From an uncultured Gemmatimonadota bacterium (GTDB lineage Bacteria; GCA-2686955): a stretch of 36,391 bases of DNA. Positions within the stretch are counted from its first letter, which is position 1, and each line of letters opens with the position of its first letter. The DNA is taken from contig CAZBBK010000013.1 of the NCBI GenBank assembly GCA_964490075.1, positions 62,001-98,391 on the forward strand. Reading direction: 5' to 3'. A program made the position numbers and the translations under genes. The notes under the pieces were generated by a model. It searched no databases. It was not told where the DNA came from and saw only the letters and a list, made by a program, of their open reading frames with translations. Positions 6,611 to 19,507 of the stretch are shown here, piece by piece.

Positions 6611-7981
6611 TCAGCGAAACCAGTCGACGTTACCGGGTCCGCCATAGGCGCCGATGTCGGATCGGACACCATCGACGTAGCCATCTGGAATGCGCGGATG
6701 CCAGTCGTAGAGCCAGTCTTGAATCGCGGGATCGCCGGCATCGATGCAGGGCGATCCGGGGCCGAGCAGGAGGTCGTAACCCGCCCAGCTGATGAACTCC
6801 GGATCGGCGTCGATATTGCCCTCTCCCTGCCATCCCCCGGCGACCAGGGAGTAGCGGATCGTTGGACCGCCGGCGTTCAGGTGGATCTCATCGGGAGTGT
6901 CGCCCCAAAAAATGCTGTTGGTGATTTCCGGATAGGAGTGATAAGCACGGATGGCGCCGCCGTAGAAGAGCGCCTGGTTGGCGGAAAGCGTGCAGTTGGT
7001 GATCGACGGCGCCCCTTCGTAGAGATAGATCCCGCCGCCGGCCCAGAGCGCCAGATTGCCGGTCACGATACAGTTCGTCACCAGCGGTGTGCGGTCCAGC
7101 CAGTAGGCATCGATATACAGACCGCCTCCGTACCAGGAGGCTTGATTGTCGGAGACGATGCACTGAGACACACTTCCGGTGCAGTTGTAGAAGAACGCGC
7201 CCGCGCCGCTGTCGTCGGCGAAGTTGCCATCGATCGCGCAGTGCTCGAAGGTCAGAGCGCTTTCGTAGCCGTAGAATCCCGCCCCGTCCAGGCCGGCGAT
7301 GTTGCTCGCGATGCTCGTGCCGCGGATCACCGGGCCGCCCGCGTCGCCGGCGTTGTCGGTCTGCATGCCGCCGCCGAATTCGTCGGCCGTGTTGTCGTGG
7401 ATTTGGCAGCTCTCGATCCAGGGAGAGGAGTCCACGAAATTGAGGCCACCGCCGTCGAAGACGGCGCCGTTGGCCCGGATGAGGGTGTTGGTGATCCGGG
7501 GCGCGCAGCCGATGCCGCCGATCCCTCCGCCGTAGATGGCGATGTTGTCTTCTACGACACAGCGATCGATCGCCGGGCTCGCCCCCTGGCAGAAGATCCC
7601 GCCCCCGGCCGCGGCGCTCACGCCTCCGGTGATCGTGAAGCCCCTCAGGCTGGAATCGACGCCCTCGCCGCTGTGGAAGATGACGCCACGATGGTAGTCC
7701 AGGTCGCTGCCCGCGCATCGAATGACGGTCAGCTCGGCCCCCTCGGAGGATGCCACGGCGATCGCCTTGCCCGAGAAGTCGAGGTCGACGTTGCCCGGCC
7801 CCTGGTAGGTCCCCGGGGCGACCAGAACCGTGTCGCCGTCCAGCGCCGCGTCGATTCCCGCCTGGATGGTCGGCTGGGAACCCGGAACGTGGATGGTGAG
7901 GGCGGTGGCCGGCAGCGCCGTGCCGATCGATAGCGACAAGAAGAGAGAGAGGGGGAAAGAAGAGACCGCGGTTCGGGTCAT
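6611..7981 (-). CDS. Secreted right-handed parallel beta-helix (pectin-lyase-like) repeat protein
   Basis: Signal peptide, TIHVPGSQPTIQAGIDAA..GDTVLVAPGTY, repeated N.A..GGG...P.ITNC coils, and C-terminal SPCIDAGDP...DIGAYGG. Confidence 0.85.
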   Translation of the reverse strand: MTRTAVSSFPLSLFLSLSIGTALPATALTIHVPGSQPTIQAGIDAALDGDTVLVAPGTYQGPGNVDLDFSGKAIAVASSEGAELTVIRCAGSDLDYHRGVIFHSGEGVDSSLRGFTITGGVSAAAGGGIFCQGASPAIDRCVVEDNIAIYGGGIGGIGCAPRITNTLIRANGAVFDGGGLNFVDSSPWIESCQIHDNTADEFGGGMQTDNAGDAGGPVIRGTSIASNIAGLDGAGFYGYESALTFEHCAIDGNFADDSGAGAFFYNCTGSVSQCIVSDNQASWYGGGLYIDAYWLDRTPLVTNCIVTGNLALWAGGGIYLYEGAPSITNCTLSANQALFYGGAIRAYHSYPEITNSIFWGDTPDEIHLNAGGPTIRYSLVAGGWQGEGNIDADPEFISWAGYDLLLGPGSPCIDAGDPAIQDWLYDWHPRIPDGYVDGVRSDIGAYGGPGNVDWFR

Positions 7982-8158: not shown

Positions 8159-8902
8159 CTACTCGACGATGAAGCAGCTCTCGACCGCGGTGTTGTTGAA
8201 CGCAGTCGAACGAGCCAGGATCTCGAACTTGTAGGTGCCGGGCCACTGGGTGACCGCCTCCGGCACCTCGAACTCGGTCATATCCGCCGGCAGGTCGACC
8301 TGGAAGCCGACCTCTCCGCCCTCTTCGACGAAGAGCTGGTAGACCTCGATCTCGACCTCGCCCTCCTTGCCGATCTCGGGATGCGAGGTGGTCACCGGAT
8401 CCCAGTCGATGGTCACCGGAGAAGCCACCACGGGCAGGTCGCCATCACAGTCCTCGGCGGCAGGGGTGCCGTTCACGGTGACGTTGGAGGCGGGTGCCGG
8501 CATCACATGGCTCAGCTCGACCTCCTCCTCGGCCTCCTCTTCGCCCCACTCGATCTCGATGGTGTAGACACCCTCGGGAAAGCGCGCGAAGAACTCCTCC
8601 GGCGGCAGATCGTCGAAGCTCGGCTCGGCGCTCTCCAGGAAGAGCTGGGTCAGGCCGTGGCGCCCGGCCCGTCCCCTGGCCTCCACCGCGAACGCGGTGC
8701 GGCCGGCGGCGTCGGAGATCTCCAGCTCCTCGTAGGGTCCGCCGTCGATCGAAGTGTGGATTCCCAGGTCGCCGTCGGTGTCGTTGAGCTCGAGAAAGAG
8801 CTCGGATTCGTCGAGCTCGATGCCCTGGGCCAGCGCGTTGGCTCCGAGCCCGAGGGCAGCGAGGGCCATGGGCAGGGCAAAGAGCTTGGTGACGGTGTTC
8901 AT
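8159..8902 (-). CDS. Secreted, very acidic hypothetical protein (beta-rich)
   Basis: ATG 8902 follows GAGGA. Signal peptide MNTVTKLFALPMALAALGLGANALA, Glu/Asp-rich mature part, high-GC3 codon pattern. Confidence 0.8.
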   Translation of the reverse strand: MNTVTKLFALPMALAALGLGANALAQGIELDESELFLELNDTDGDLGIHTSIDGGPYEELEISDAAGRTAFAVEARGRAGRHGLTQLFLESAEPSFDDLPPEEFFARFPEGVYTIEIEWGEEEAEEEVELSHVMPAPASNVTVNGTPAAEDCDGDLPVVASPVTIDWDPVTTSHPEIGKEGEVEIEVYQLFVEEGGEVGFQVDLPADMTEFEVPEAVTQWPGTYKFEILARSTAFNNTAVESCFIVE

Positions 8903-9140
8903 CGGAAGTTCCTCCGGGTGAGGGAGCGGGGATAGAGCCGCTCTCGATTCAGGGGGCAAGCGCGGCGGGCGCTTGGTGGCTCGAGCGACCATTCAGCGGT
9001 CGCGCCGATGAACCATCGCAATCGACGTGCCACCTCGGAGGAGGTTCGGAAGTTGCTGTCAGCCAGCCGTTTACGAGATCCATGGGGATCGCGGCACCGT
9101 GCTCGAATCGGCAGAGATCTGCCGCGACCGGCACGGACCC

Positions 9141-9390
9141 TCAGACGAAGCTCGTGTCTTTGAAGTAGTCGCTCAAGAACACGATCTTGCCGTCGCGCAG
9201 CCCGATCACCGTGACGCCCTCGTTCCGAAGCGCGCAGGCTCGAGCGCCGTCGATCGGCACTTCGTGGAGATGGAAGTCGAGGCGGCGGTACTTGCGGAAG
9301 AGCACACGCAGGAAGGCCAGCACGCGGCGCGACCCGACCAGCGGCGCCATTCCCGGAAAGCGCAGCTCGATCTCCTCGACGAGGGCGAAC
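9141..9390 (-). pseudogene. Remnant of a SnoaL/NTF2-like gene
   Basis: The C-terminal part reads like NTF2/SnoaL (IELRFPG..LVGSRRVLAFLRVLFRKY...GVTVIGLRDGKIVFLSDYFKDTSFV). There is no credible start or N-terminal helix, and an internal segment appears to be missing. Confidence 0.5.
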
Positions 9391-9574
9391 GCGCCGCCGC
9401 CCGGGATTTGAGCGCTAAAGGAATCTGTCCGGTGCTCCAGTCCTACCGCAGCCTCGGCCCCGCCGATCTCTCGAAGGTCCCTTATTGGCTCTGGAGCTCT
9501 GCTCGCGAGGCGGGGAAACGACGCCGTTTCGACGACGAGGGCTCGACATCGGCGGTCTGGAAGCTCCTCGCGCG

Positions 9575-10630
9575 CTAGAACCGCAAATCGAGCTGCACCA
9601 AAAGCTCGTTGTTGTCGACCTCGGTCCCCTCTTCGTCGTAGAGGTTGTAGTTGGCTCGGATCGCGACGTGGTCGTTCAGGTGACAATTTGCCCCGAGGCT
9701 AGTCAGCAGCTCCTGGTCATCGGCGATTTCGTCGTTCGGATCGTACTGCTCGTAGCGGGCCAGCGCGGTGATGTGGGGACTGATCTGGTAGGAGGCGAGC
9801 GCGTGCCAGCTCCAGGTCAGCAGGTCGGAACCGTCTCCTTCCCGAGACTGCGCGATGTACTCCGACTGCAGTGTGATTTTTTCGGCCGCGTAGGCGAGCA
9901 GCCCGGAGATACGCTCTCGCTTCTTGCCGAGGCCCTCCTCTTCGAGCTGGTCGCCGCCCCAATAGGCGCCGCCGAGACGGAGGGGACTCAGAGGCGATTC
10001 CATGCCCTTGAAGGGCTGCAAGACTGCGCGAGCCACCAGGTCCTTGGCATCGTTGACATCGTCTATGTTGACTCCCGATCCATTGAAGACACCGAGCGAG
10101 AGCCGACACTTGCCCTGAAGGAGCTCACTGCCGAGCACGAGGCCGATGTCTCGCGGAGAGATCCTCGGGTTGTCGGCGGAGCTGCCGGCATGGGTCTCGT
10201 AGATCCGCGGGCCGCGGATCAGCGGTTGCGACGGCGCCGGATTCGCGAATGACAGTCCCGCCTCCGAGAAGGGCACCTTGAACTGGCCGACGCGCACGCT
10301 GAAGCGCTCATCCGGAGCGTAGGTCAGAAAGGCATCCCAGAGCGTGTTCTTGCGAATGCTGTACAGGACTTTGTAGCTGGTATTGGAAGCCAAACGACCA
10401 GCGAAGTAGAGCTTCACTTCCGCCACATCGAAATCGTCGGGGCTGGTCGATTCCGGATCGTCGGCGTCCTCCGTGGCGTTGTAGCGAATAAACGCCACGC
10501 CCTTGATAGAAGCATCCAGACTTCCGCTGGCGATCTGAATCCCGGTGTCGCTCTCGGCCGCCGCGGTCGAGAGCGGAGCGCCGGCAAGGGCGCCCGCCAC
10601 CAAAGCTACCATCAGCTGTATCGATCTCAT
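9575..10630 (-). CDS. Outer-membrane porin (phosphate-selective porin O/P-like beta-barrel)
   Basis: Signal peptide, VRVGQFKVPFSE, RDIGLVL and GVFNGSG motifs, C-terminal Phe (QLDLRF). ATGA overlap with the upstream fusion gene. Confidence 0.85.
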   Translation of the reverse strand: MRSIQLMVALVAGALAGAPLSTAAAESDTGIQIASGSLDASIKGVAFIRYNATEDADDPESTSPDDFDVAEVKLYFAGRLASNTSYKVLYSIRKNTLWDAFLTYAPDERFSVRVGQFKVPFSEAGLSFANPAPSQPLIRGPRIYETHAGSSADNPRISPRDIGLVLGSELLQGKCRLSLGVFNGSGVNIDDVNDAKDLVARAVLQPFKGMESPLSPLRLGGAYWGGDQLEEEGLGKKRERISGLLAYAAEKITLQSEYIAQSREGDGSDLLTWSWHALASYQISPHITALARYEQYDPNDEIADDQELLTSLGANCHLNDHVAIRANYNLYDEEGTEVDNNELLVQLDLRF

Positions 10631-12372
10631 CGCGCATTTCCTTTCATCACTACCGACAGCTCCTCCATCAGACGCAACATCTCCTCGGCCGGCACGAAGT
10701 CGACCACGCGTAGCTCACGGTGCTCTCTGCCCTGATCGTCGAGCATGATCAGAGTCGGAACCCCTTTCACCTCGTAATGTCTCAGCAGACGATCGTGCAG
10801 CGGGTTGTCGCCGCCGGTCACGTCCACCTTGATCATCACCAGGTCCTTGGCGGCTTGCACCACCCGCGAATCGTGAAACGTCTCGGCTTCCAGCTTACGG
10901 CATGGCGTGCACCACCCGGCCGAAAAGTCGATGATGACCGCTTTGCCCTCTCGGCTCGCGTGAGCGAGGAGCTCATCGGAGTAGTGTTGCCAGCCGACCC
11001 CGGGCCCGAGCAACGCCCAGGCGGTGATCAGGTAGGTTCCGAGCACCACGCCCGACAATCCCATGGCGCGTTTGATCCAGGCGAAGCTGCGGAAGCTCGC
11101 GACGATCGGATCGAGCCAGCCTACCGCAACCCCCGCGACCAGAGCAACCGTCGCGATCGTCAGCAGGCCGAGGGGCTCGGGCAGAATCGGGCGCAGAAAA
11201 TAGGCCGCCATCCCGATCAGGATCCAACCCATCAGCCGGCGCACCCAGAGCATCCACTCGCCGGAGCGCGGCAGCCGATCGATGCGACCGGAGAAGACCG
11301 CCAGCGCGAAGAGGGGCAGCCCCAGTCCGAGGCTGAGGGTGAAGAAGATCAGGAATCCGTACCAGGCGCTGCCGCTCTCGGCCACCAGCGTGAGCAGGCC
11401 GAGCACGAAGGGCCCGATGCAGGGCGCGGCCACCACGCCCATCGCCAGTCCCATGAAGAGAGTGCCGAAGTAGCCGCCGTGGGAGCGCGCCGCCACCTGG
11501 GTCAGCCCGCTGGGCATGCGCATCTCCCACAATCCGAACATGCTGGTTGCCAGCAGCAGCAGAATTCCGGCCACCCCCACCAGCACCAACGGATTCTGCA
11601 GCAGCGCCCCCATCATGCCGCCGGTGAGTCCCGCCACCACGCCGAGCGCGGAGTTGGTGATCACCAGTCCGGCCAGGTAGCAGAGACCGTGGACCACCAC
11701 CGCACCCTGGGATCTGCCCGAGCGGCCACCGAAGTAGGTCACGGTGATCGGAATCAGAGGGTAGACGCAGGGGGTGAGGTTGAGGGCCAGTCCTCCCACG
11801 AACACTCCGGCGAGCATGAGCACCAGGGCCCAGCCGAACACCGGCACGGCCGGCACCTCGGTCTCCTCGATCGCCGGCGAATCGACGCTCGCCACCGGCA
11901 GACCGTGCTCCCGCCAGTCCGGGAACCCCTCCGGGTAGCGATAGACTTTCTCGTATCCCAGTGAGACGGCCACACGGGCCGCCGAGTCGCTGCGGACTCA
12001 GGTGAAGCCCGCTCAGTAGAATGCGATCAAGGCGTCCGAGTGCGGCTCCAGCAGCTTGTCGATTTTGCCGCGGGCGCGCCACCGGGCCCACCAGGTCGGC
12101 TCCATCGAGAAGTGCAGCGAGCCGGGGATGTGGCCGGTGCGATGCTCCCAGGCCTGGCGGGTGTCGACCAGCGCCACGCTCTTGGGATCGTTCTCGATCG
12201 CGCGCACCAGCTCGTCGGCCTCGATCAGCCCGTAGCCGCCTTTGCGTGCCTCTTTCTCCAGCTGCGCCTGTTGCTCGGGCGTGGCATCGGCGATCGCGAT
12301 CCCGGGCCACGCCAGCAGAGCTGCCAGGAGCACCAGACCAAGCGGTACGCGTCTATCGATGGAGTCCTTCAC
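10627..12372 (-). CDS. Predicted double-selenocysteine protein: signal peptide + rhodanese (UxxxxU) + DsbD/CcdA transmembrane domain + thioredoxin-like domain, 581 aa
   Basis: ORFs 12013..12372 and 10627..11973 share one frame and are separated only by TGA at 12013-12015 and TGA at 11998-12000. Read-through gives LVDTRQAWEHRTGHIPGS...IAFY-U-AGFT-U-VRSDSAARVAVSLGYEKVYRYPEGFPDW, a complete rhodanese domain. It continues into TPCVYP and APCIGP (DsbD beta) and WCTPC (Trx). GGAGG precedes the GTG start. Confidence 0.88.
11965..11999 (-). promoter_or_regulatory. Two tandem bacterial SECIS-like hairpins
   Basis: mRNA GAGUC-CGCAGC-GACUC has its loop starting 18 nt after UGA1. GGCGGCC-CGUGU-GGCCGUC has its loop starting 21 nt after UGA2. 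Both have G at loop position 2. Confidence 0.6.
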
Positions 12373-13394
12373 GATGATCCTCCGGCCGCCGAAGAAGCCG
12401 ACACTTGCGCGTCATCGGAGCGCAGGCGTTGAACCAGCGGTGTGACCCAACTGCCGGCCATCGCCGCCGGCACGAAGAGCAGCGCGCCCGGGGCCAGCAG
12501 GGGCGTGGCGCTCAGCCCCAGCCCGACCGTGCAGCCGGCCGCCAGGGCACCGCCGAGTCCCAGCCCGATGCCGCCGGCGAAGGCGGTCGCGAGCTTGCGC
12601 GGCGACGCCTTCGACCACTTGAAGCGGCCCTCGACCCGGGCGGCCGCGTGGGCCCCCAGGGTAATCGCCACCACCAGCACCGCGGCTGCGTCCAGGCGCC
12701 CGGGTCCGGCGCCCAGCAGCGCCTCGAACCAGCTGATGTTGCCGGGGATGATCGCCAGTCCATGGCCGCGTCCATCGACCGCCGCCAGCGCCCAGGCGCC
12801 GATGCCGACCGCTCCGATCACCACACCGGTGCGACGCCAGTCCCAGGCCCCGCGGGCCGCGGTCGATGGCTTCAGGCGACTCGCGACCACCAGCAGCAAT
12901 AAGGCCAGCGGCAGGGCAAGGGTCCACAGCGGTAGACCCGCCAGGCGCGGCGGATCGATCGGAGCCGGCACCGGCGCACCGCCGCCCCCGCCCGCCAGGT
13001 GGACGATCAGTCCGATCGACGCCGTGAAACCGGCGACCGCGGCCGTGCAGGCGACACTTCCTTCGCCGACATGTTGCCACACTCCCGCTCCGCAGCCACC
13101 GGCGGGCGCCATGGCGAAGCCGAAGATCAGGCCGCCCAGCAGCACCCTTCCGACATCGAATCCGATCTCGGGCAGCGCCAGCCATCCGGCCGCCGCCAGC
13201 AGCGGCAGCACCGCCATCTGCACCGCGACCGCCAGCCACAAGGTGTGGAACTTGCCGAAGCGCCTCCTGACCAGGAGGTCCCGAAAACCGGAGTTCAGTC
13301 AGAAGCGGCCGCGGCTCGCCGCGTAGCCGTAGGCGAAGCCGAGCGCCGCCCCTGAGAGCAGGGTGAGGCTGGTGTGGAGCATGGCTGGGTCCAT
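12369..13394 (-). CDS. YeeE/YedE-family thiosulfate/sulfur(selenium) transporter, predicted selenoprotein (U32), 341 aa
   Basis: ATG 13394, 3 nt after the ArsR stop, is in frame with ORF 12369..13241 through one TGA at 13299-13301. The translation is GAALGFAYGYAASRGRF-U-LNSGFRD, matching the family RxRFC motif. GGLIFGFAMAPAGGC and GLGGALAAGC follow. Confidence 0.88.
13263..13278 (-). promoter_or_regulatory. SECIS-like hairpin of the YeeE/YedE gene
   Basis: mRNA CCUCCU-GGUC-AGGAGG forms a perfect 6-bp stem with a G-initiated 4-nt loop starting 26 nt after the UGA. A lower stem GAACU/AGUUC is also possible. Confidence 0.7.
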
Positions 13395-13397
13395 CCG

Positions 13398-13715
13398 CTA
13401 CGGCTTCTTGGTGACGCAGCAGGTCGGGGCGGGCGGCTCGGCCGCCGCCTCGTCGTCGAGCAGGGCGACGAGTTGCGCGATGCGCGGGTCGCAGAGGTAG
13501 TAGCAGCGCAGCCGGCCGTGCACGTAGAAGTCCACGACCCCGCGCTTGCGCAGGACCGCAAGATGCTGCGAGACATTCGGTTGAGGAATCCCGAGGTTGG
13601 GCTCGAGGTCGGAGACGCAGAGCGGATCTCCCTCCTCCGCCAGGCGTTTGATGATCCGAATCCGCGTGGGGTGGGCGATCGTTCGCAGCAGCAGGGCCTT
13701 GGCTTCGACGTCCAT
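13398..13715 (-). CDS. ArsR/SmtB-family transcriptional repressor with five Cys
   Basis: IAHPTRIRII, LCVSDL and QPNVSQHLAVLRKRGVV motifs, plus RCYYLC and a C-terminal TCC. Confidence 0.93.
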   Translation of the reverse strand: MDVEAKALLLRTIAHPTRIRIIKRLAEEGDPLCVSDLEPNLGIPQPNVSQHLAVLRKRGVVDFYVHGRLRCYYLCDPRIAQLVALLDDEAAAEPPAPTCCVTKKP

Positions 13716-13721
13716 GCGGAT

Positions 13722-13750
13722 ACGATAGGGAAGCCATCATATGCCGTCAA
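13722..13750 (-). promoter_or_regulatory. Sigma70-type promoter of the arsR-yeeE-rhodanese/dsbD-porin operon (probably leaderless)
   Basis: Minus strand TTGACG (13750-13745), 17 nt, TATCGT (13727-13722), 6 nt, then ATG. No Shine-Dalgarno sequence. The region is an AT-rich island. Confidence 0.7.
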
Positions 13751-13797
13751 GGATATATATTAGATCGGCCAGGGTTTCTCTGGCGGCGCCCTTCTGG

Positions 13798-16700
13798 TCA
13801 GCTCGCGATCCGCCGCCGCACGCCGCGTCCGTGGAAACGGCCGACGTGCAGCACGCGCGCCACGTCGTCGACCAGGCTATAGAGCGAGGGGATGACCAGC
13901 AGGGTCAGGAAGGTGGCGACGGTCAGGCCCCAGACGATGGTGCTGGCCAGCGGACCCCAGACCGGGGAGTGGCCGCCGATGCCGAGCATCATCGGCAGCA
14001 GGCCGAAGACGGTGGTGAGGGTGGTCAGGCAGATCGGCCGCAGGCGGGTGCGGCCGGCATCGAGCACGGCGTCGCGCAGACTCAGGCCCCGCTCGCGCCC
14101 CATGTTGATGAACTCGATCAGGACCAGCGAGTCGTTGACGACCACCCCGGCCAGCGCCACGAAGCCGTAGAGAGTGGTGATGGTGAGAGTGTCGCCGCTC
14201 AAGGTGAGACTGATGGCGGCGCCGGCCAAACCGATCGGGATGGTGTAGAGGATGATCAGGGGCTGCACGAAGGAACGGAACTGCGCGCCGAGGATCATGT
14301 AGATCAGCAGCAGGCCGAGCAGGCCCAGGCGGCCGATGCCGCTCAGCGCCTTTTCGAACTCCTTCATCTCGCCGCCGAAGTCGAGACGGTATCCCGGGAA
14401 GCCGGGGGCGAGCTGCGCGAATCGTTGCTCCACCCAGCGTGCCACGTCGCCGCCCGACATGCCGCCTCCCTTCAGGTTGCCGCTGATGGTCACGGCGCGA
14501 TCACCGTCGAAGCGCGGGACCGCGCTCAGGCCTTCGGCGACTTGGACGGATGCGACCTCGCTGAGCGGCACGCTGCCGCCGCTTCGGGTGGGGACTCGCA
14601 GCGACAGAATATCGGCGATGTCGCGCCGGTAGCGCTCGTCGAGGCGCACCACGACGTCGATCTTTTCGTCGCCGTCCAGGTAGCTGGTGGCCACCTCGCC
14701 GTCGAGGGCGGTGCGCACGTGGGTCGCCAGGGCGGCGTTGTCGAGGGCCACCATGCCCGCCACATCGGGGCGCAGGCGCAGCTCGAGCACCTGCTTGCCG
14801 GGGCGCAGATTGTGGTCGACGTCGACCACTCCGGGCAGGGCGCCGAGCTCGTCGCGCAACAGGTTGCCGAGCAGCTCCAGATCGTCGAGGTAGGGACCCT
14901 TGATCTTGAACTCGATCGCCGCGCCGGCCGGCGGGCCGTCGGTCTTCTCCCAGATCTTGACCGTCTCGAGCCCGGTCAGCGAGGCGACGCGCGAGCGGAT
15001 CTGGTCGGTGATCTGGCGCATCGAGCGCGTCCGGTCGTCGTTCGGCACCAGGTCGACGTAGACCTCGCCCACCGCCGTGTTCCAGATCCAGTCGGTGTCG
15101 GTACGGAGCAATCCGGCGGTGGTGATCACCGATCCGCGCTCGGCGGGGTCGATGGTGTCGAGCACGATCTCCTCGAAGCGGTGCATCTGGGCGTCCATCG
15201 CCTCGAGGGTGGTCCCCTCGGGAGCCCACACCTGCACCCAGAACTGGCCCGATTCCTCGCCGGCGAAGAGGTCGGCGTCGGCCAGCTTCCAGGCGATCAC
15301 CCCCACCGAGAGGATCGGCAGCACGGTGGCCAGGGCACCGACCGCGTAGCGATGGTCGAAGCAGAGCGCCAGGAGGTGCGAGTAGCGGGGGCGGACGCGG
15401 TCCAGCAGCCGGCTGCCGAAAGGCGGGCGGTCGTCACCGGCGACGATGCGACCCCAGTCGGCGACGTGCGCCGGCAGCACGATGAGCGCCTCGAAGAGCG
15501 AGACCGCCAGGGCCACCGAGACGACGATCGGCACCACCTTCAGGAACTCGCCCATGATGCCGGGCAGCAGCATCAGGGGCAGGAAGCCGGCGATGGTGGT
15601 CAGGGAGGAGGTGAGCACCGGCAGCGCCACCTCCGACATGCCCCGGATCACCGCGCGATGCGGAGAGCTGCCCTGCTGGATGTGGCGGAAGACGTTCTCG
15701 ATGATGACGATGGCGTCGTCGACGATCATCCCCAACACCAGCACCAGGCCGAAGAGGGAGTTGCCGTTGAGGGTCTCGCCGATCAGGTCGAGGAAGAGGA
15801 AGGTGCCGGTGAAGCTGACGGCGATGCCGAGCGCGGCGAAGAGGGCGTTGCGCGCCTCCAGGAAGAGCAGCAGGGTGAGGATGACCAGGATCAGGCCGAA
15901 GCCGGCGTTGCGGTAGAGGGTGCGCAGGATGTCGCGGATTCCGACCGTCGAGTCGCCGCTCAGGCGGACTTCGACCCCGGTGGGCATGCGCTCTTCGAAA
16001 CCTTCGGCGGCCTCGCGCACGCGGTCCAGCACGTCGAGGGCGTTGGCGGCGGCGCGGCGGGTGACGAAGAGGGCGAAGGCGGGTTGCCCGTCGAGGCGCG
16101 AGTAGGTCAGGGCGTCCTCGAAGCCGTCGCGCACCGCGGCCACGTCGCGGATGCGCAGATGGCCGCCGCCAGGGGAGGGGCGCAGGATGACCGATTCCAG
16201 CTCGGCGGCGCTGTCGACCTCGCCCTTGGTCTTGACCATGAACTCGACCTCGCCGACCGGATAGTTGCCGGCCGGCAGGTCGAGGTTGTGGGCGCGCAGC
16301 GCATCGACCACGGCAGAGAGCGGGAGGCCGGTGGCGTCCAAGGCGGCGGCGTCTACCTCGACGAAGACCTGGCGATCGCGGGTGCCGATCAGCGAGGCGT
16401 CGGAGATGCCTTCGACATCGAGGATCTCCTCGCGCAGGTCGTCGACCCAGCGCTTGAGCTGGGCCTCGGGGTAGTCGCCCGAGAGGGTGAGGTGGACCAG
16501 GGGCTCGAAGGTGGAGGTATCGAGATCGAAGTAGTCGATCTCCTCGACCCCCTCCGGAAGCTGGTCGCGGATCGCGTCGATTTCGCGCTGCACGTCCTGG
16601 AAGCGGCGCCGGTACTCGTCGCGCGGCATGGTCTCGAAGCGCACCGAGATCTGGCCCGAATTCTCGGTCGCCAGCGAGGTGATGGTGCTGATCCCTTCGA

Positions 16701-16920
16701 TCCCCTCGATCGCCTCTTCGATCTCACGGATCACCTTGCGCTCGATCTCTTCGGGGGTGGCCCCCGGGTAGATCGCAAACACGTAGACCCAGTTGAAGGT
16801 GATGTTGGGATAGGCCTCGCGCGGCATGCGGGCGAAGGCCAACAGGCCCATGACCAGCACGATCAGCGCCAGCATGTTGGTGAGAACGGTGTTCTCGATG
16901 ATGCGCCGGAACAGGCCCAT
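13798..16920 (-). CDS. RND efflux permease (AcrB/AcrD/AcrF-like), 1040 aa
   Basis: MPREAYPNI, GMIVDDAIVIIEN, GVVVNDSLVL and RLRPICLTTLTT motifs. The start is ATG 16920 (MGLFRRIIE); the 18225 start is a frame extension. Confidence 0.95.
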   Translation of the reverse strand: MGLFRRIIENTVLTNMLALIVLVMGLLAFARMPREAYPNITFNWVYVFAIYPGATPEEIERKVIREIEEAIEGIEGISTITSLATENSGQISVRFETMPRDEYRRRFQDVQREIDAIRDQLPEGVEEIDYFDLDTSTFEPLVHLTLSGDYPEAQLKRWVDDLREEILDVEGISDASLIGTRDRQVFVEVDAAALDATGLPLSAVVDALRAHNLDLPAGNYPVGEVEFMVKTKGEVDSAAELESVILRPSPGGGHLRIRDVAAVRDGFEDALTYSRLDGQPAFALFVTRRAAANALDVLDRVREAAEGFEERMPTGVEVRLSGDSTVGIRDILRTLYRNAGFGLILVILTLLLFLEARNALFAALGIAVSFTGTFLFLDLIGETLNGNSLFGLVLVLGMIVDDAIVIIENVFRHIQQGSSPHRAVIRGMSEVALPVLTSSLTTIAGFLPLMLLPGIMGEFLKVVPIVVSVALAVSLFEALIVLPAHVADWGRIVAGDDRPPFGSRLLDRVRPRYSHLLALCFDHRYAVGALATVLPILSVGVIAWKLADADLFAGEESGQFWVQVWAPEGTTLEAMDAQMHRFEEIVLDTIDPAERGSVITTAGLLRTDTDWIWNTAVGEVYVDLVPNDDRTRSMRQITDQIRSRVASLTGLETVKIWEKTDGPPAGAAIEFKIKGPYLDDLELLGNLLRDELGALPGVVDVDHNLRPGKQVLELRLRPDVAGMVALDNAALATHVRTALDGEVATSYLDGDEKIDVVVRLDERYRRDIADILSLRVPTRSGGSVPLSEVASVQVAEGLSAVPRFDGDRAVTISGNLKGGGMSGGDVARWVEQRFAQLAPGFPGYRLDFGGEMKEFEKALSGIGRLGLLGLLLIYMILGAQFRSFVQPLIILYTIPIGLAGAAISLTLSGDTLTITTLYGFVALAGVVVNDSLVLIEFINMGRERGLSLRDAVLDAGRTRLRPICLTTLTTVFGLLPMMLGIGGHSPVWGPLASTIVWGLTVATFLTLLVIPSLYSLVDDVARVLHVGRFHGRGVRRRIAS

Positions 16921-16922
16921 GC

Positions 16923-18044
16923 TCAGCGCTCCGCCCGGATCTCGACCGCCTCGCCGTCGACCAGGCGCTGGTGGCCGACCACGATCAGACGATCGCCGGG
17001 GACCAGGCCCTCGACGATGCGCACCCGCTCGTCGACACGCTCGCCGACGCGCAGGGCGCGCTGCTGGGCCAGGCCGTTCTGCTCGACGAAGCCGAGCGCG
17101 GCGCCGCGCCGCACCACCACCGCCGACTGCGGGATCAGAATGGCGTCGGCGAGCTCTTCGCGCACCAGCTCGACGCGCACCGCGCTGCCGATCAGGGCTC
17201 CAGTCGCGGCGCTCAGCTCGACCTCGACCGGGTAGGTGCGGGTGCCGGGATCGGGAGCGACGGCGACCGAGCGCACCCGGGCGGGCCAGGCGCGGCTCGG
17301 ATCGTCGATCGGCTCGACGCGCGCGCTGTCGCCGGGCGCGACGGCGATCACCTCGCCGGCCGGCAGGCCGACGGTGATCCGCGGTGGGCCGCTGGAGACC
17401 AGCCGCGCCACCGGCTGTCCGGGGGCGATGGTGGCGCCGGGATCGGCGGCGAGGGCGGCGAGGACGCCCGGCCAGGGCGCCCGCACCACGGTCTCGCGAC
17501 GGGCGCGCAGCGCCGCGCGCAGGCTCGCCTCGGCATCGCGCCGGGAGGCGGCGGCGCTGCGCCTGGAGAGCTCGGCCTGGTCGCGCTGGGAGTCGGTCAG
17601 GTCGCCGGCGGCGTGCAGCTCGCGCACCCGCAGCCATTCGCGCTCGGCGTGCTCGGCGGCGGCCCGGGCGGCGTCGAGGCCGGCCTCGGCGCGCGTCACG
17701 CCGATCTCGGCCGGCTCGGGGTCGAAGCGCAGGATCGGATCCCCGGTCGCCAGGATGTCGCCGGTGTCGTGGAGCTGCTCGATCACCCGACCGCCGGTCT
17801 CCGAGGCGAGCCAGACGTCGTGCTCGGCGGCCAGAGCGCCGGTGGCGCGGATCAGCAGGGCGGCGGAGCCGGGTTGGACCCGCTCGACTTCGACGGCGCT
17901 GAGGGGGGTGGTCGTGGCGGCGGGCGGGTCGGCGTCGCCCTCGGCGCGGGTGTCGTGGGCGCAGCCGAGGAGCGAAAGGGCGGCGAGCAGGGCGACCGGA
18001 AGCAGAACGCGAGCGCCGGCGGTCGTCGTGGGATCGGGGATCAT
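16923..18044 (-). CDS. RND periplasmic adaptor (membrane fusion protein), lipoprotein
   Basis: Lipobox LLGC, alpha-hairpin, VRAPWPG, DPGTRTYPVEV and GLVPGDRLIVVG. Confidence 0.92.
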   Translation of the reverse strand: MIPDPTTTAGARVLLPVALLAALSLLGCAHDTRAEGDADPPAATTTPLSAVEVERVQPGSAALLIRATGALAAEHDVWLASETGGRVIEQLHDTGDILATGDPILRFDPEPAEIGVTRAEAGLDAARAAAEHAEREWLRVRELHAAGDLTDSQRDQAELSRRSAAASRRDAEASLRAALRARRETVVRAPWPGVLAALAADPGATIAPGQPVARLVSSGPPRITVGLPAGEVIAVAPGDSARVEPIDDPSRAWPARVRSVAVAPDPGTRTYPVEVELSAATGALIGSAVRVELVREELADAILIPQSAVVVRRGAALGFVEQNGLAQQRALRVGERVDERVRIVEGLVPGDRLIVVGHQRLVDGEAVEIRAER

Positions 18045-19507
18045 GGGTGGTCCTCTGCGGGTCCCGGCGGGACGCCGCTCGCCAGCTCCGAGAAACCGAG
18101 GAGGAAGCCGAGCGCGGCGGCCTCCAGGTAGTAGCCGGTGCGGTTCGAGATCGCTCCGAGCTCGGCCTCCAGGCAGGCCAGGCGGGCATCCTCCAGCTCC
18201 AGACGAGAGACGGCGCCCTGGACACGGCCGCGCTCGGCGGCGGCCAGCCCGCGGCGGGCGGCGGCGGCGGCCTTGGTGGCGTGCCCGCGGCGGCGGACGG
18301 CGGTGCGCAGTCGGGCGAGGTGCGTCACGAGCCGCTCGCGCTGGGCGCGACGCGCGTCATCGAGCCGGTGCCCTTCGGCGGCCTCACGGGCTCGGGCCTC
18401 GGCGCGGTCGAAGTAGCCGGTGGCGAAGGGAAGCAGCGGGAGCGAGACCACCAGCGACGCGCTCCATTCGGAGTAGTCGTCGAGGGCGATGGTCTCGTTG
18501 GCGCGCCAGCCGTAGCTGGCCCCGACAGCGACCGAGGGGAGCAGGGGGGCGCCGGCGGCGCGCGCCGCGGCGGCGGCGATGGCGCGCGCGGCCTCGGCGG
18601 CCCGCACCTCCGGGGCGGTGGCGCGTAGGCTCCGGGCCCAGGAGTCGACGACGCGCCCGGTGGTGTCGGCGAGGACGGTCTCGATGGGGCGCAGCTCGGG
18701 CAGGTCGCGTGCCTCGTCGAGGACCTCGATCGACTCACCGGGCGCCAGCGCCCTTCCCAGCAGACGCTCCAGTGCGGCGCGGGCCTCGACCTCGGCCGCC
18801 CGAGCCTCGGCCAGGTCGGCACGCGCGGCCGCGGCGGCGACCTCCCAGCGCAGCAGGTCGAGCTCGGTCCCGCTGCCCACCTCGAGACGGGTTGCCGCGC
18901 TGCGCCGGTAGTCGTCGACGCGGTCGACGTTGGCGCGCAGCACGGCGATCGTCTCGAGCGCCCGCCGCAGCGAGAGGAAGGCGCTTCGAGTCTCGAGCTC
19001 CGCGCGGCGGTCTTCGATCCGCTCCATCTGGTTCGCCAGGTCGCGCGCGCCCCGCGCCATCCCCAGCGCCCCCAGGCGGCTGCCGCCGGTGAAGAGCGCC
19101 CAGCTCAGCTCCAGCTCGCTGCGGTGGCTCTCGGCGAACACCCGCAGGTCGTCGAAGTCGCCGCCGGCCGACCGCGATTCGGGGGGCGGACCGAGCGAGT
19201 CGCCCGGCACCTGGGGCGCCGGGAAGAAGTCGATCCAGGAGTTGGCTCGCTCGACCGTCTCGGCGTCGAGGCGAGTGATCCGATGACGCGCGTCGAGCGA
19301 GGGCAGCCAGAGCGACCAGGCGCCCTGCTCGGCCGCGCGGGCGGCCTGCTCTTCGGCGCGGGCGGCGGCCAGCGCCGGATCGGAGCGTCGCGCTTCGGCG
19401 ATCGCGTCGGCGAGGGTCAACGCAAGCGCTTCCGGTGCCGCGCAGGTCGCCAGAACGAGGAGCGTCCGGGCGCTGCGTCCCATCCACCAGCCTCCCACGC
19501 CGATCAT
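18041..19507 (-). CDS. TolC-family outer membrane efflux protein
   Basis: LTLADAIAEA, LPSL, LFTGG and Ala/Arg-rich coiled coils. ATGA overlap with the MFP. Alternative start at 19483. Confidence 0.88.
   Translation of the reverse strand: MIGVGGWWMGRSARTLLVLATCAAPEALALTLADAIAEARRSDPALAAARAEEQAARAAEQGAWSLWLPSLDARHRITRLDAETVERANSWIDFFPAPQVPGDSLGPPPESRSAGGDFDDLRVFAESHRSELELSWALFTGGSRLGALGMARGARDLANQMERIEDRRAELETRSAFLSLRRALETIAVLRANVDRVDDYRRSAATRLEVGSGTELDLLRWEVAAAAARADLAEARAAEVEARAALERLLGRALAPGESIEVLDEARDLPELRPIETVLADTTGRVVDSWARSLRATAPEVRAAEAARAIAAAAARAAGAPLLPSVAVGASYGWRANETIALDDYSEWSASLVVSLPLLPFATGYFDRAEARAREAAEGHRLDDARRAQRERLVTHLARLRTAVRRRGHATKAAAAARRGLAAAERGRVQGAVSRLELEDARLACLEAELGAISNRTGYYLEAAALGFLLGFSELASGVPPGPAEDHP

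Follow-up and report, generated by a model that had tools for sequence, protein, structure and literature searches.

A predicted four-gene selenoprotein operon linking a TsoB-type rhodanese/DsbD/thioredoxin fusion to a selenocysteine-containing YeeE-family protein in an uncultured Gemmatimonadota bacterium

Several selenoproteins of the Tso system, an acronym for "three selenoprotein operon", are presented in a 2026 review (PMC13188914), which attributes their description to Haft and Tolstoy (2025). The passages of the review devoted to this system include TsoA with the motif LULAxC (U standing for selenocysteine, Sec), TsoB with two Sec in the motif UxxxxU, TsoC with the motif NEPxGxxU, TsoX, and TsoY, and a function for TsoB was found neither in these passages nor in its NCBIfam name. 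A selenoprotein of the YeeE/YedE family with the motif GUxSG (WP_012471001.1) appears in passages of the same review and of a review from 2022 (PMC9312934). According to the literature excerpts covered, those YeeE relatives whose function is known are importers of thiosulfate or sulfur, and there is doubt whether the cysteines of their pore react chemically or do no more than form hydrogen bonds. The same excerpts describe soxSRT, in which a periplasmic thiol-disulfide oxidoreductase, a sulfane-sulfur-sensing ArsR-type repressor, and a YeeE-like importer cooperate. The locus considered here brings elements of these systems together. It lies in a stretch of 36,391 nucleotides (nt), hereafter the window, from an uncultured marine Gemmatimonadota bacterium (assembly GCA_964490075.1, contig CAZBBK010000013.1, positions 62,001 to 98,391), and comprises four minus-strand genes in which a TsoB homolog is coupled to a YeeE-family protein with Sec and to a porin.

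In the order of transcription, the genes encode an ArsR/SmtB-family regulator of 105 residues (13715-13398, stop TAG at 13400-13398), a YeeE-like protein of 341 residues (13394-12369, ATG at 13394, stop TGA at 12371-12369), a rhodanese/DsbD/thioredoxin fusion of 581 residues identified as TsoB (12372-10627, GTG at 12372, stop TGA at 10629-10627), and an outer-membrane porin of 351 residues (10630-9575, ATG at 10630, stop TAG at 9577-9575). A preliminary description, made from the letters of the window alone, had presented them as four co-oriented genes behind one promoter, and the minus-strand reading frames agree with it. Thus, the regulator and the YeeE-like gene are separated by 3 nt (13397-13395), the stop of the YeeE-like gene and the GTG of TsoB share GTGA with GGAGGA immediately 5' of the GTG, and the stop of TsoB and the ATG of the porin gene share ATGA. 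A single sigma-70-like site, TTGACG-17-TATCGT (13750-13722, minus strand), was found by consensus match on both strands of 9200-14000, against 0.4 in shuffled sequences. It precedes the ArsR gene, and no terminator-like site was found on the minus strand within the operon. As its -10 box ends 7 nt 5' of the ArsR ATG, the ArsR message may be leaderless. Judged from their sequences, the four genes form a real and well-supported selenoprotein operon. The best explanation overall, with a probability of about 55%, is that this operon encodes two real selenoproteins acting on a sulfur or selenium anion.

That both genes encode true selenoproteins, and that the fusion is TsoB, is very likely. Three in-frame TGA codons had been reported in the two adjacent genes and are indeed present, one at codon 32 of the YeeE-like gene (U32, 13301-13299) and two at codons 120 and 125 of TsoB (U120, 12015-12013; U125, 12000-11998). 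Their conservation was followed in a scan of species genomes that yielded 343 TsoB-like stretches, of which the best 80 were kept; together with the window and its relative G002, these make 82 TsoB loci. All 82 carry both TGA codons in frame within the motif F-Y/F-U-x-G-x-x-U-x-R-S-D, and the TGA of the YeeE-like gene is retained wherever the sequence extends over this codon, in eight loci out of eight (five metagenome contigs, two relatives, and the window itself). The codons also stand where the families have Cys, as had been claimed. Distant full-length homologs of the YeeE-like protein have Cys at codon 32 in four cases out of four (motif RGxFCLNSGFR), and among four full-length homologs of the fusion, two have Cys at both positions (FYCxGxxCVRSD), one has Gly and Arg, and one has a gap. 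Moreover, the fusion passes the curated TsoB model NF045694 of NCBIfam (860.7 bits, cut-off 805), and the same model applied to the genome gives 848.5 bits with two TGA.

The machinery for Sec insertion, which the preliminary description had proposed to look for, was found in the window genome (5.70 Mb in 136 contigs, 95.3% complete) with all components over their cut-offs. It includes a tRNA-Sec at 75.2 bits, on which ARAGORN agrees with anticodon TCA, SelA at 505.9 bits, SelB at 345.6 bits, and SelD at 317.9 bits. The selD gene (contig C65:32509-33429, locus L018) contains one in-frame TGA, so SelD itself is probably a selenoprotein.

The alternative that these proteins are not selenoproteins, the TGA codons being true stops, sequencing errors, pseudogene lesions, or products of a global reassignment, is most improbable. 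It could draw on the splitting of both genes by gene callers and on hairpins that fold no better than shuffled sequences. It is contradicted by the conservation of the codons in frame, the Sec machinery, the match to a curated model, and compensatory changes in a hairpin described below. Sequencing error was rejected, all three TGA codons being reproduced with no difference in contigs of two other samples from one marine metagenome study (X2 records 12 and 14, X3 records 18 and 22, with TsoB in X2 record 12 and X3 record 18); the possibility raised beforehand that reads would carry TGC or TGT finds no echo in them. Global recoding was likewise rejected, as 15 of 20 window genes, among them the YeeE-like and TsoB genes, end with TGA in its usual role of stop codon. 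In runs X1 to X3, the contig depth peaks over the double-TGA motif (window 11955-12094), and loose contig ends at 12000 continue into different TsoB-like sequences, likewise with TGA, so these marine samples contain several further organisms with TsoB.

Besides the codons themselves, a hairpin had been claimed after each TGA. A hairpin is predicted 3' of all three, but the two TGA codons of the fusion share only one that is conserved. Because the folding energies do not exceed those of shuffled sequences, support was taken from conservation instead. The conserved hairpin of TsoB (11982-11966, minus strand), a candidate Sec insertion sequence (SECIS), has a 6-bp stem closed by the loop CGKGU and lies 34-50 nt past the first UGA and 19-35 nt past the second. 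Across 80 distinct sequences, 99.6% of its cells are paired, the shuffled and slid controls being clearly lower. Compensatory changes at synonymous third positions convert pair 36:48 from GC to AU in ten sequences and pair 39:45 from CG to UA in one. The hairpin directly 3' of the first UGA contains the second UGA, is paired in only 83% of cells, and shows no compensatory change; it was dropped as a SECIS candidate. A single SECIS-like element is therefore read as serving both UGA codons of TsoB, only the downstream hairpin being conserved with compensatory changes. In the YeeE-like gene, the putative element CCUCCU-GGUC-AGGAGG (13278-13263, minus strand), proposed on fold and conservation, begins 23 nt and ends 38 nt after the U of the UGA. 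It is retained in all eight loci, one of them with a wobble change, and its 3' arm consists of two consecutive AGG codons, a codon used for 23 of the 748 Arg residues in 20 window genes. An Rfam scan returned nothing relevant, its single miRNA match being at chance level (E 0.99).

Both genes had been expected to be truncated by standard gene callers, and this is the case in public protein sets. Thus, the protein collection searched holds the window genes only as forms of 448 residues (fusion) and 290 residues (YeeE). Among the 120 best TsoB-like entries, 116 have no rhodanese domain and measure 406-483 residues, as expected where gene callers take the TGA codons for stops, and all nine close relatives of the YeeE-like protein begin after the TGA (277-281 residues). 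Correct annotation of the YeeE clade is further concerned by the lack of a specific NCBIfam model, as only the TsuA and YedE models were matched, far below their cut-offs.

The domain reading of the preliminary description is borne out by Pfam, with Rhodanese at residues 52-155, DsbD_TM at 184-397, and Thioredoxin_7 at 461-545 of the fusion, and with YeeE, ArsR, and porin O/P family matches for its neighbours. The fusion thus has the rhodanese/DsbD-membrane/thioredoxin layout of the TsoB family, its motif F-Y-U-x-G-x-x-U-x-R-S-D with two Sec, and the same conserved downstream hairpin. A crude hydropathy scan finds about eight hydrophobic peaks from residue 178 to residue 455 and, at the N-terminus, a hydrophobic segment (residues 9-27) with AIA-D directly after it. 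This pattern fits an exported rhodanese domain with a DsbD-like topology, by analogy with DsbD. E. coli DsbD likewise combines a membrane domain bearing two essential Cys with a C-terminal thioredoxin-like domain. The fusion, however, reaches only 238.7 bits against a cut-off of 330 for the DsbD model NF001419 and covers profile positions 171-572 only. As the match starts at position 171, the N-terminal alpha domain of DsbD is replaced by the double-Sec rhodanese domain. In this domain, U120 falls on the catalytic Cys in an alignment with four solved rhodaneses, and the active-site loop is two residues longer than in these, with U125 located within the extra part. The resulting arrangement of Sec, six residues, and Arg matches neither the sulfurtransferase spacing nor the CX5R spacing of phosphatases and arsenate reductases. 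U120 and U125 are invariant in 52 sequences, as are the Cys pair of the membrane domain (C202 and C318) and that of the thioredoxin domain (C488-x-x-C491).

The YeeE-like protein matches Sulf_transp (PF04143) over its full length, at 166 bits against a cut-off of 27 and over profile positions 1-310 of 310. Its predicted Sec lies in the motif RGRF-U-LNSGFR, and U32, C101, and C288 are invariant columns in two YeeE alignments. By these alignments, the Sec stands at the first of the three conserved Cys of the family, the three residues probably matching, by their order, Cys22, Cys91, and Cys293 of the solved S. thermophila protein. The importers YeeE/TsuA and SoxT likewise have a full-length Sulf_transp domain of about 340 residues with three conserved Cys positions, whereas the window protein has Sec at the first of them and no adjacent TusA/YeeD partner. 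It scores 110.9 bits against a cut-off of 400 (NF052577) and 89.4 bits against 645 (NF041049) with the TsuA models. The YeeE/YedE selenoprotein of the reviews, as it is presented in the passages covered, belongs to the same Pfam family and also has one Sec at a conserved Cys; it differs by its GUxSG motif from RF-U-LNSG at the first Cys, a difference judged by motif only. An example with GUPSG, locus L133, aligns its Sec with the third conserved Cys (C288 in the window protein). In two earlier papers on selenoproteomes, PMC5029168 and PMC2398784, YeeE is not named in the main text. With Sec in the place of the first conserved Cys, the window protein is relevant to the question whether cysteines of the pore have a chemical role or one limited to hydrogen bonding.

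L133 itself (contig C55:43195-43695 of genome G064) is a half-size PmpA-like protein with Sec from Desulfobulbus, with the motif ADG-U-PSGHGLSG. The window genome also encodes a second, Cys-type pair of half-size Sulf_transp proteins similar to PmpB and PmpA (contig C85:2099-3476, loci L131 and L135), which follows a gene end flagged with a TGA in the search.

The gene context of TsoB was explored by tblastn with the window proteins (E 1e-5 or better) around the 80 best TsoB loci. YeeE and porin relatives stand beside TsoB in one of them, L037, a locus labelled Gemmatimonadetes by NCBI that apparently belongs to the same genome as G002 and whose TsoB is 78% identical to that of the window. Of the 79 loci outside the window lineage, 53 have the TsoA motif and 67 the TsoC motif, usually directly before and after TsoB. 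The TsoA and TsoC family models have no match in the window genome (G000) or in its relative G065, and a motif scan found none in the lineage; the same searches retrieved both, with one TGA each, in all four of the canonical genomes searched. Thus, whereas TsoA and TsoC flank TsoB in the canonical Tso system, the window operon has a Sec-containing YeeE and a porin instead. The collection holds five species genomes of the GTDB phylum of the window lineage. YeeE with Sec is found in three of them, each time adjacent to TsoB, and the porin gene follows TsoB in the two genomes whose contigs reach that far. The gene order, whose conservation had been proposed as a check, is therefore kept for the YeeE-TsoB pair in three of three lineage genomes, but the layout recurs in only one of the 80 best loci.

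The preliminary description did not recognise the combination as a described system, a view that is only partly right and that fails for the largest component. The fusion is the published TsoB, a curated double-Sec family, and YeeE-family selenoproteins as such are already known from reviews. A Sec-containing YeeE associated with TsoB and a porin without TsoA and TsoC was not found in the literature, a coverage that excludes the primary Tso paper and in which searches for an earlier description yielded only the two reviews. Judging from the genomes compared, the apparent absence of TsoA and TsoC, their replacement by a YeeE with Sec at its first conserved Cys and an O/P-type porin, and the lineage-restricted layout look new.

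The same YeeE with Sec also occurs on six metagenome contigs (69-75% identity). TsoB and the porin are absent from all six, and in three the ArsR gene also precedes YeeE (74-79% identity). On two of these contigs, L121 and L122, one gene of the DsrE family separates ArsR from YeeE and another lies downstream of YeeE. The pair of L122 scores 71.7 and 86.2 bits with PF02635, and the pair of L121 looks alike by sequence. DsrE proteins are sulfur carriers.

Other TsoB contexts were noted. In Desulforhabdus sp. TSK (L110:9881-11632), TsoB has no TsoA, TsoC, YeeE, or porin motifs nearby, which indicates that further contexts exist. Several canonical loci (L052, L069, L076, L079, and L102) carry a second, Cys-type rhodanese with YCRGPYC, and in two loci (L048:9110-9787 and L063:2628-3314) the gene just 5' of TsoB starts with an ArsR-like helix-turn-helix. 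In the relative G003, TsoB (L119:712-2124, contig C626) is broken into three frames with five TGA codons and is either a decaying gene or poorly assembled.

Such contexts bear on a reading in which TsoB ensures a general periplasmic redox repair, its selenol domain reducing oxidised proteins or peroxides and its neighbours being functionally unrelated. The existence of loci such as L110 and the DsbD architecture, with the alpha domain exchanged for another redox-active domain, would suit it. This reading is nevertheless very unlikely. Indeed, the GTGA and ATGA overlaps couple the translation of TsoB to that of YeeE and the porin and are conserved in the lineage. The two further dedicated selenoproteins that flank TsoB in most loci also suggest a specific pathway.

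The reading preferred here is a reductive handling of a periplasmic sulfur or selenium anion coupled to import. The translational coupling of TsoB to a channel of a sulfur-transporting family and to an anion-type porin points to a small sulfur or selenium anion of the periplasm as the substrate, and the gene combination offers candidate substrates of TsoB that can be put to the test. The DsrE-family genes beside ArsR-YeeE(U) in L121 and L122 add a sulfur context. The anion (thiosulfate, polysulfide, or a selenium oxyanion) would enter through the O/P-type porin and meet the exported rhodanese domain of TsoB, which would occupy the place of DsbD-alpha. There, U120 would accept sulfane sulfur or selenium, U125 would resolve the adduct to form a diselenide, and the thioredoxin domain (C488/C491) would reduce it again. 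As in DsbD, electrons would pass from cytoplasmic thioredoxin to the membrane Cys pair (C202/C318) and then to the thioredoxin domain. The released reduced species would cross the inner membrane through the Sec-containing YeeE channel and would be sensed in the cytoplasm by the Cys-rich ArsR repressor. The direction may be uptake, or export for detoxification. It is put forward tentatively, at somewhat less than even odds, that the substrate is a sulfur or selenium anion and that the steps follow this order.

This trans-envelope scheme, which the preliminary description had sketched, is a reasonable fit to the soxSRT paradigm by analogy. As far as the excerpts describe it, soxSRT follows the same logic as the window operon, with an ArsR repressor, a YeeE-like protein, and a periplasmic oxidoreductase. 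The window operon differs by the fusion of its reductase parts to a rhodanese domain, its use of Sec, its included porin, and a genome in which SoxY was not found. Together with soxVW, this accessory module of sulfur oxidisers also has an electron conduit of the CcdA/DsbD type.

Several observations weigh against the anion-handling reading at one or another of its levels. At the level of the selenoproteins, the hairpin energies give z scores of 0.11, -0.44, and -1.24 relative to shuffled sequences in this 69% G+C DNA, none of them better, and in the full-length TsoB homolog P0011 the two Sec are replaced by Gly and Arg. As each of these residues has codons one base away from TGA, the replacement may reflect either a natural loss of Sec or an artefact of annotation. 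At the level of the substrate, the loop lengthened by two residues relative to sulfurtransferases implies that the substrate may not be sulfur. At the level of the partners, no YeeE or porin relative was found beside TsoB in 79 of the 80 best loci, so TsoB does not need YeeE, and most other loci carry the cytoplasmic-looking TsoA and TsoC instead. A TusA/YeeD-type partner is not encoded at the locus, TusA-family matches in the genome being confined to contigs C61 and C1. SoxY was not found in the window genome by a search whose control was positive in Thermus; a link to the Sox pathway was therefore rejected, and the operon is not a Sox accessory. Finally, the regulator lies far below the cut-offs of the BigR model (52.7 bits against 155) and of the model for TsoR, the regulator of the Tso system (NF045707, 36.9 bits against 115), and has Lys instead of Cys at the position aligned with Cys42 in helix alpha-2 of BigR. 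Its vicinal C-terminal Cys pair resembles that of arsenite-sensing ArsRs and would point to a metalloid.

The regulator matches HTH_5 at 53.8 bits and NF033788, the ArsR/SmtB metalloregulator subfamily, at 75.6 bits (cut-off 55). Cys33, Cys71, and the vicinal Cys99-Cys100 are conserved in its five lineage homologs. It shares 29% identity with a canonical TsoR (L065), in which these conserved Cys are absent. Its designation as a "thiol-sensing repressor" in the preliminary description is a guess. In the closest relative (L037:8743-8919), the ArsR gene 5' of YeeE(U)-TsoB-porin resembles a pseudogene, since codon 8 is TAG and the recognition helix is lost in a deletion of 45 residues. The porin belongs to the phosphate-selective porin O/P family (Porin_O_P, 43.2 bits, cut-off 20.9) and has a signal peptide and a C-terminal Phe; a copy of 61% identity occupies the same position in L037.

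The main rival of the anion-handling reading is a role in metalloid or soft-metal defence, in which the selenols of the widened loop would bind or reduce arsenic, tellurium, mercury, or a similar species in the periplasm, while ArsR would sense the metalloid and YeeE and the porin would move it. The metalloregulator subfamily of the regulator, with a Cys at an ELCVCDL-type position and the conserved vicinal pair, speaks for it, as does the naming of the canonical partner TsoR as a "metalloregulator" by NCBI. The length of the rhodanese loop points the same way, since rhodanese-fold arsenate reductases have a longer loop, even though the loop spacing also misfits the CX5R type of such enzymes. 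An RND (resistance-nodulation-division) efflux operon directly upstream would agree with it, whereas no ars, mer, or ter gene was found among the scanned window genes. PMC13188914 links most of the transporter-related selenoproteins that it lists, YeeE/YedE included, to metal or metalloid resistance; in the literature excerpts covered, on the other hand, the YeeE members of known function transport thiosulfate or sulfur. The association of the same ArsR-YeeE(U) pair with sulfur carriers of the DsrE family in L121 and L122 also goes against it. Taken as a whole, a metalloid or metal function is unlikely.

An outward detoxification of sulfide or persulfide, in which reactive sulfur would exit through YeeE, be processed by TsoB in the periplasm, and be released by the porin, is less likely still. 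It would account for the coupling of an ArsR-type regulator to a YeeE-like gene, a feature shared with BigR-type operons, which contain YeeE-like (DUF395) membrane proteins. BigR is the top-scoring named regulator model for the window protein, and DsrE-family carriers accompany ArsR-YeeE(U) in two metagenome relatives. Against this stand the same shortfall of the BigR score and the Lys at the Cys42 position, as well as an operon that encodes neither a persulfide dioxygenase nor a sulfide:quinone reductase. It is moreover not obvious what an export route would gain from a reductase supplied by the cytoplasm.

Within the preferred reading of reduction coupled to import, the reduced species might also be handed over covalently, as a selenosulfide or diselenide passing from U120/U125 of TsoB to U32 at the mouth of the YeeE channel and powered by the DsbD relay. 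Such a step is doubtful, a chance well below that of the anion-handling order itself. To our knowledge, a covalent "bucket brigade" has not been demonstrated for any YeeE, for which only a hydrogen-bond relay has been proposed. If true, it would be a first way into the function of the Tso system, so far an orphan.

The neighbourhood of the operon in the window includes the RND efflux operon (13798-19507), composed of an outer-membrane factor, an HlyD-type adaptor, and an AcrB-type pump, which ends 82 bp upstream of ArsR on the same strand, with HemB and HemC further up. On the 3' side of the porin gene, two minus-strand genes without a Pfam match follow, one of 456 residues (6611-7981) and one of 277 residues (8159-8992), the latter with an N-terminus that resembles a signal peptide.

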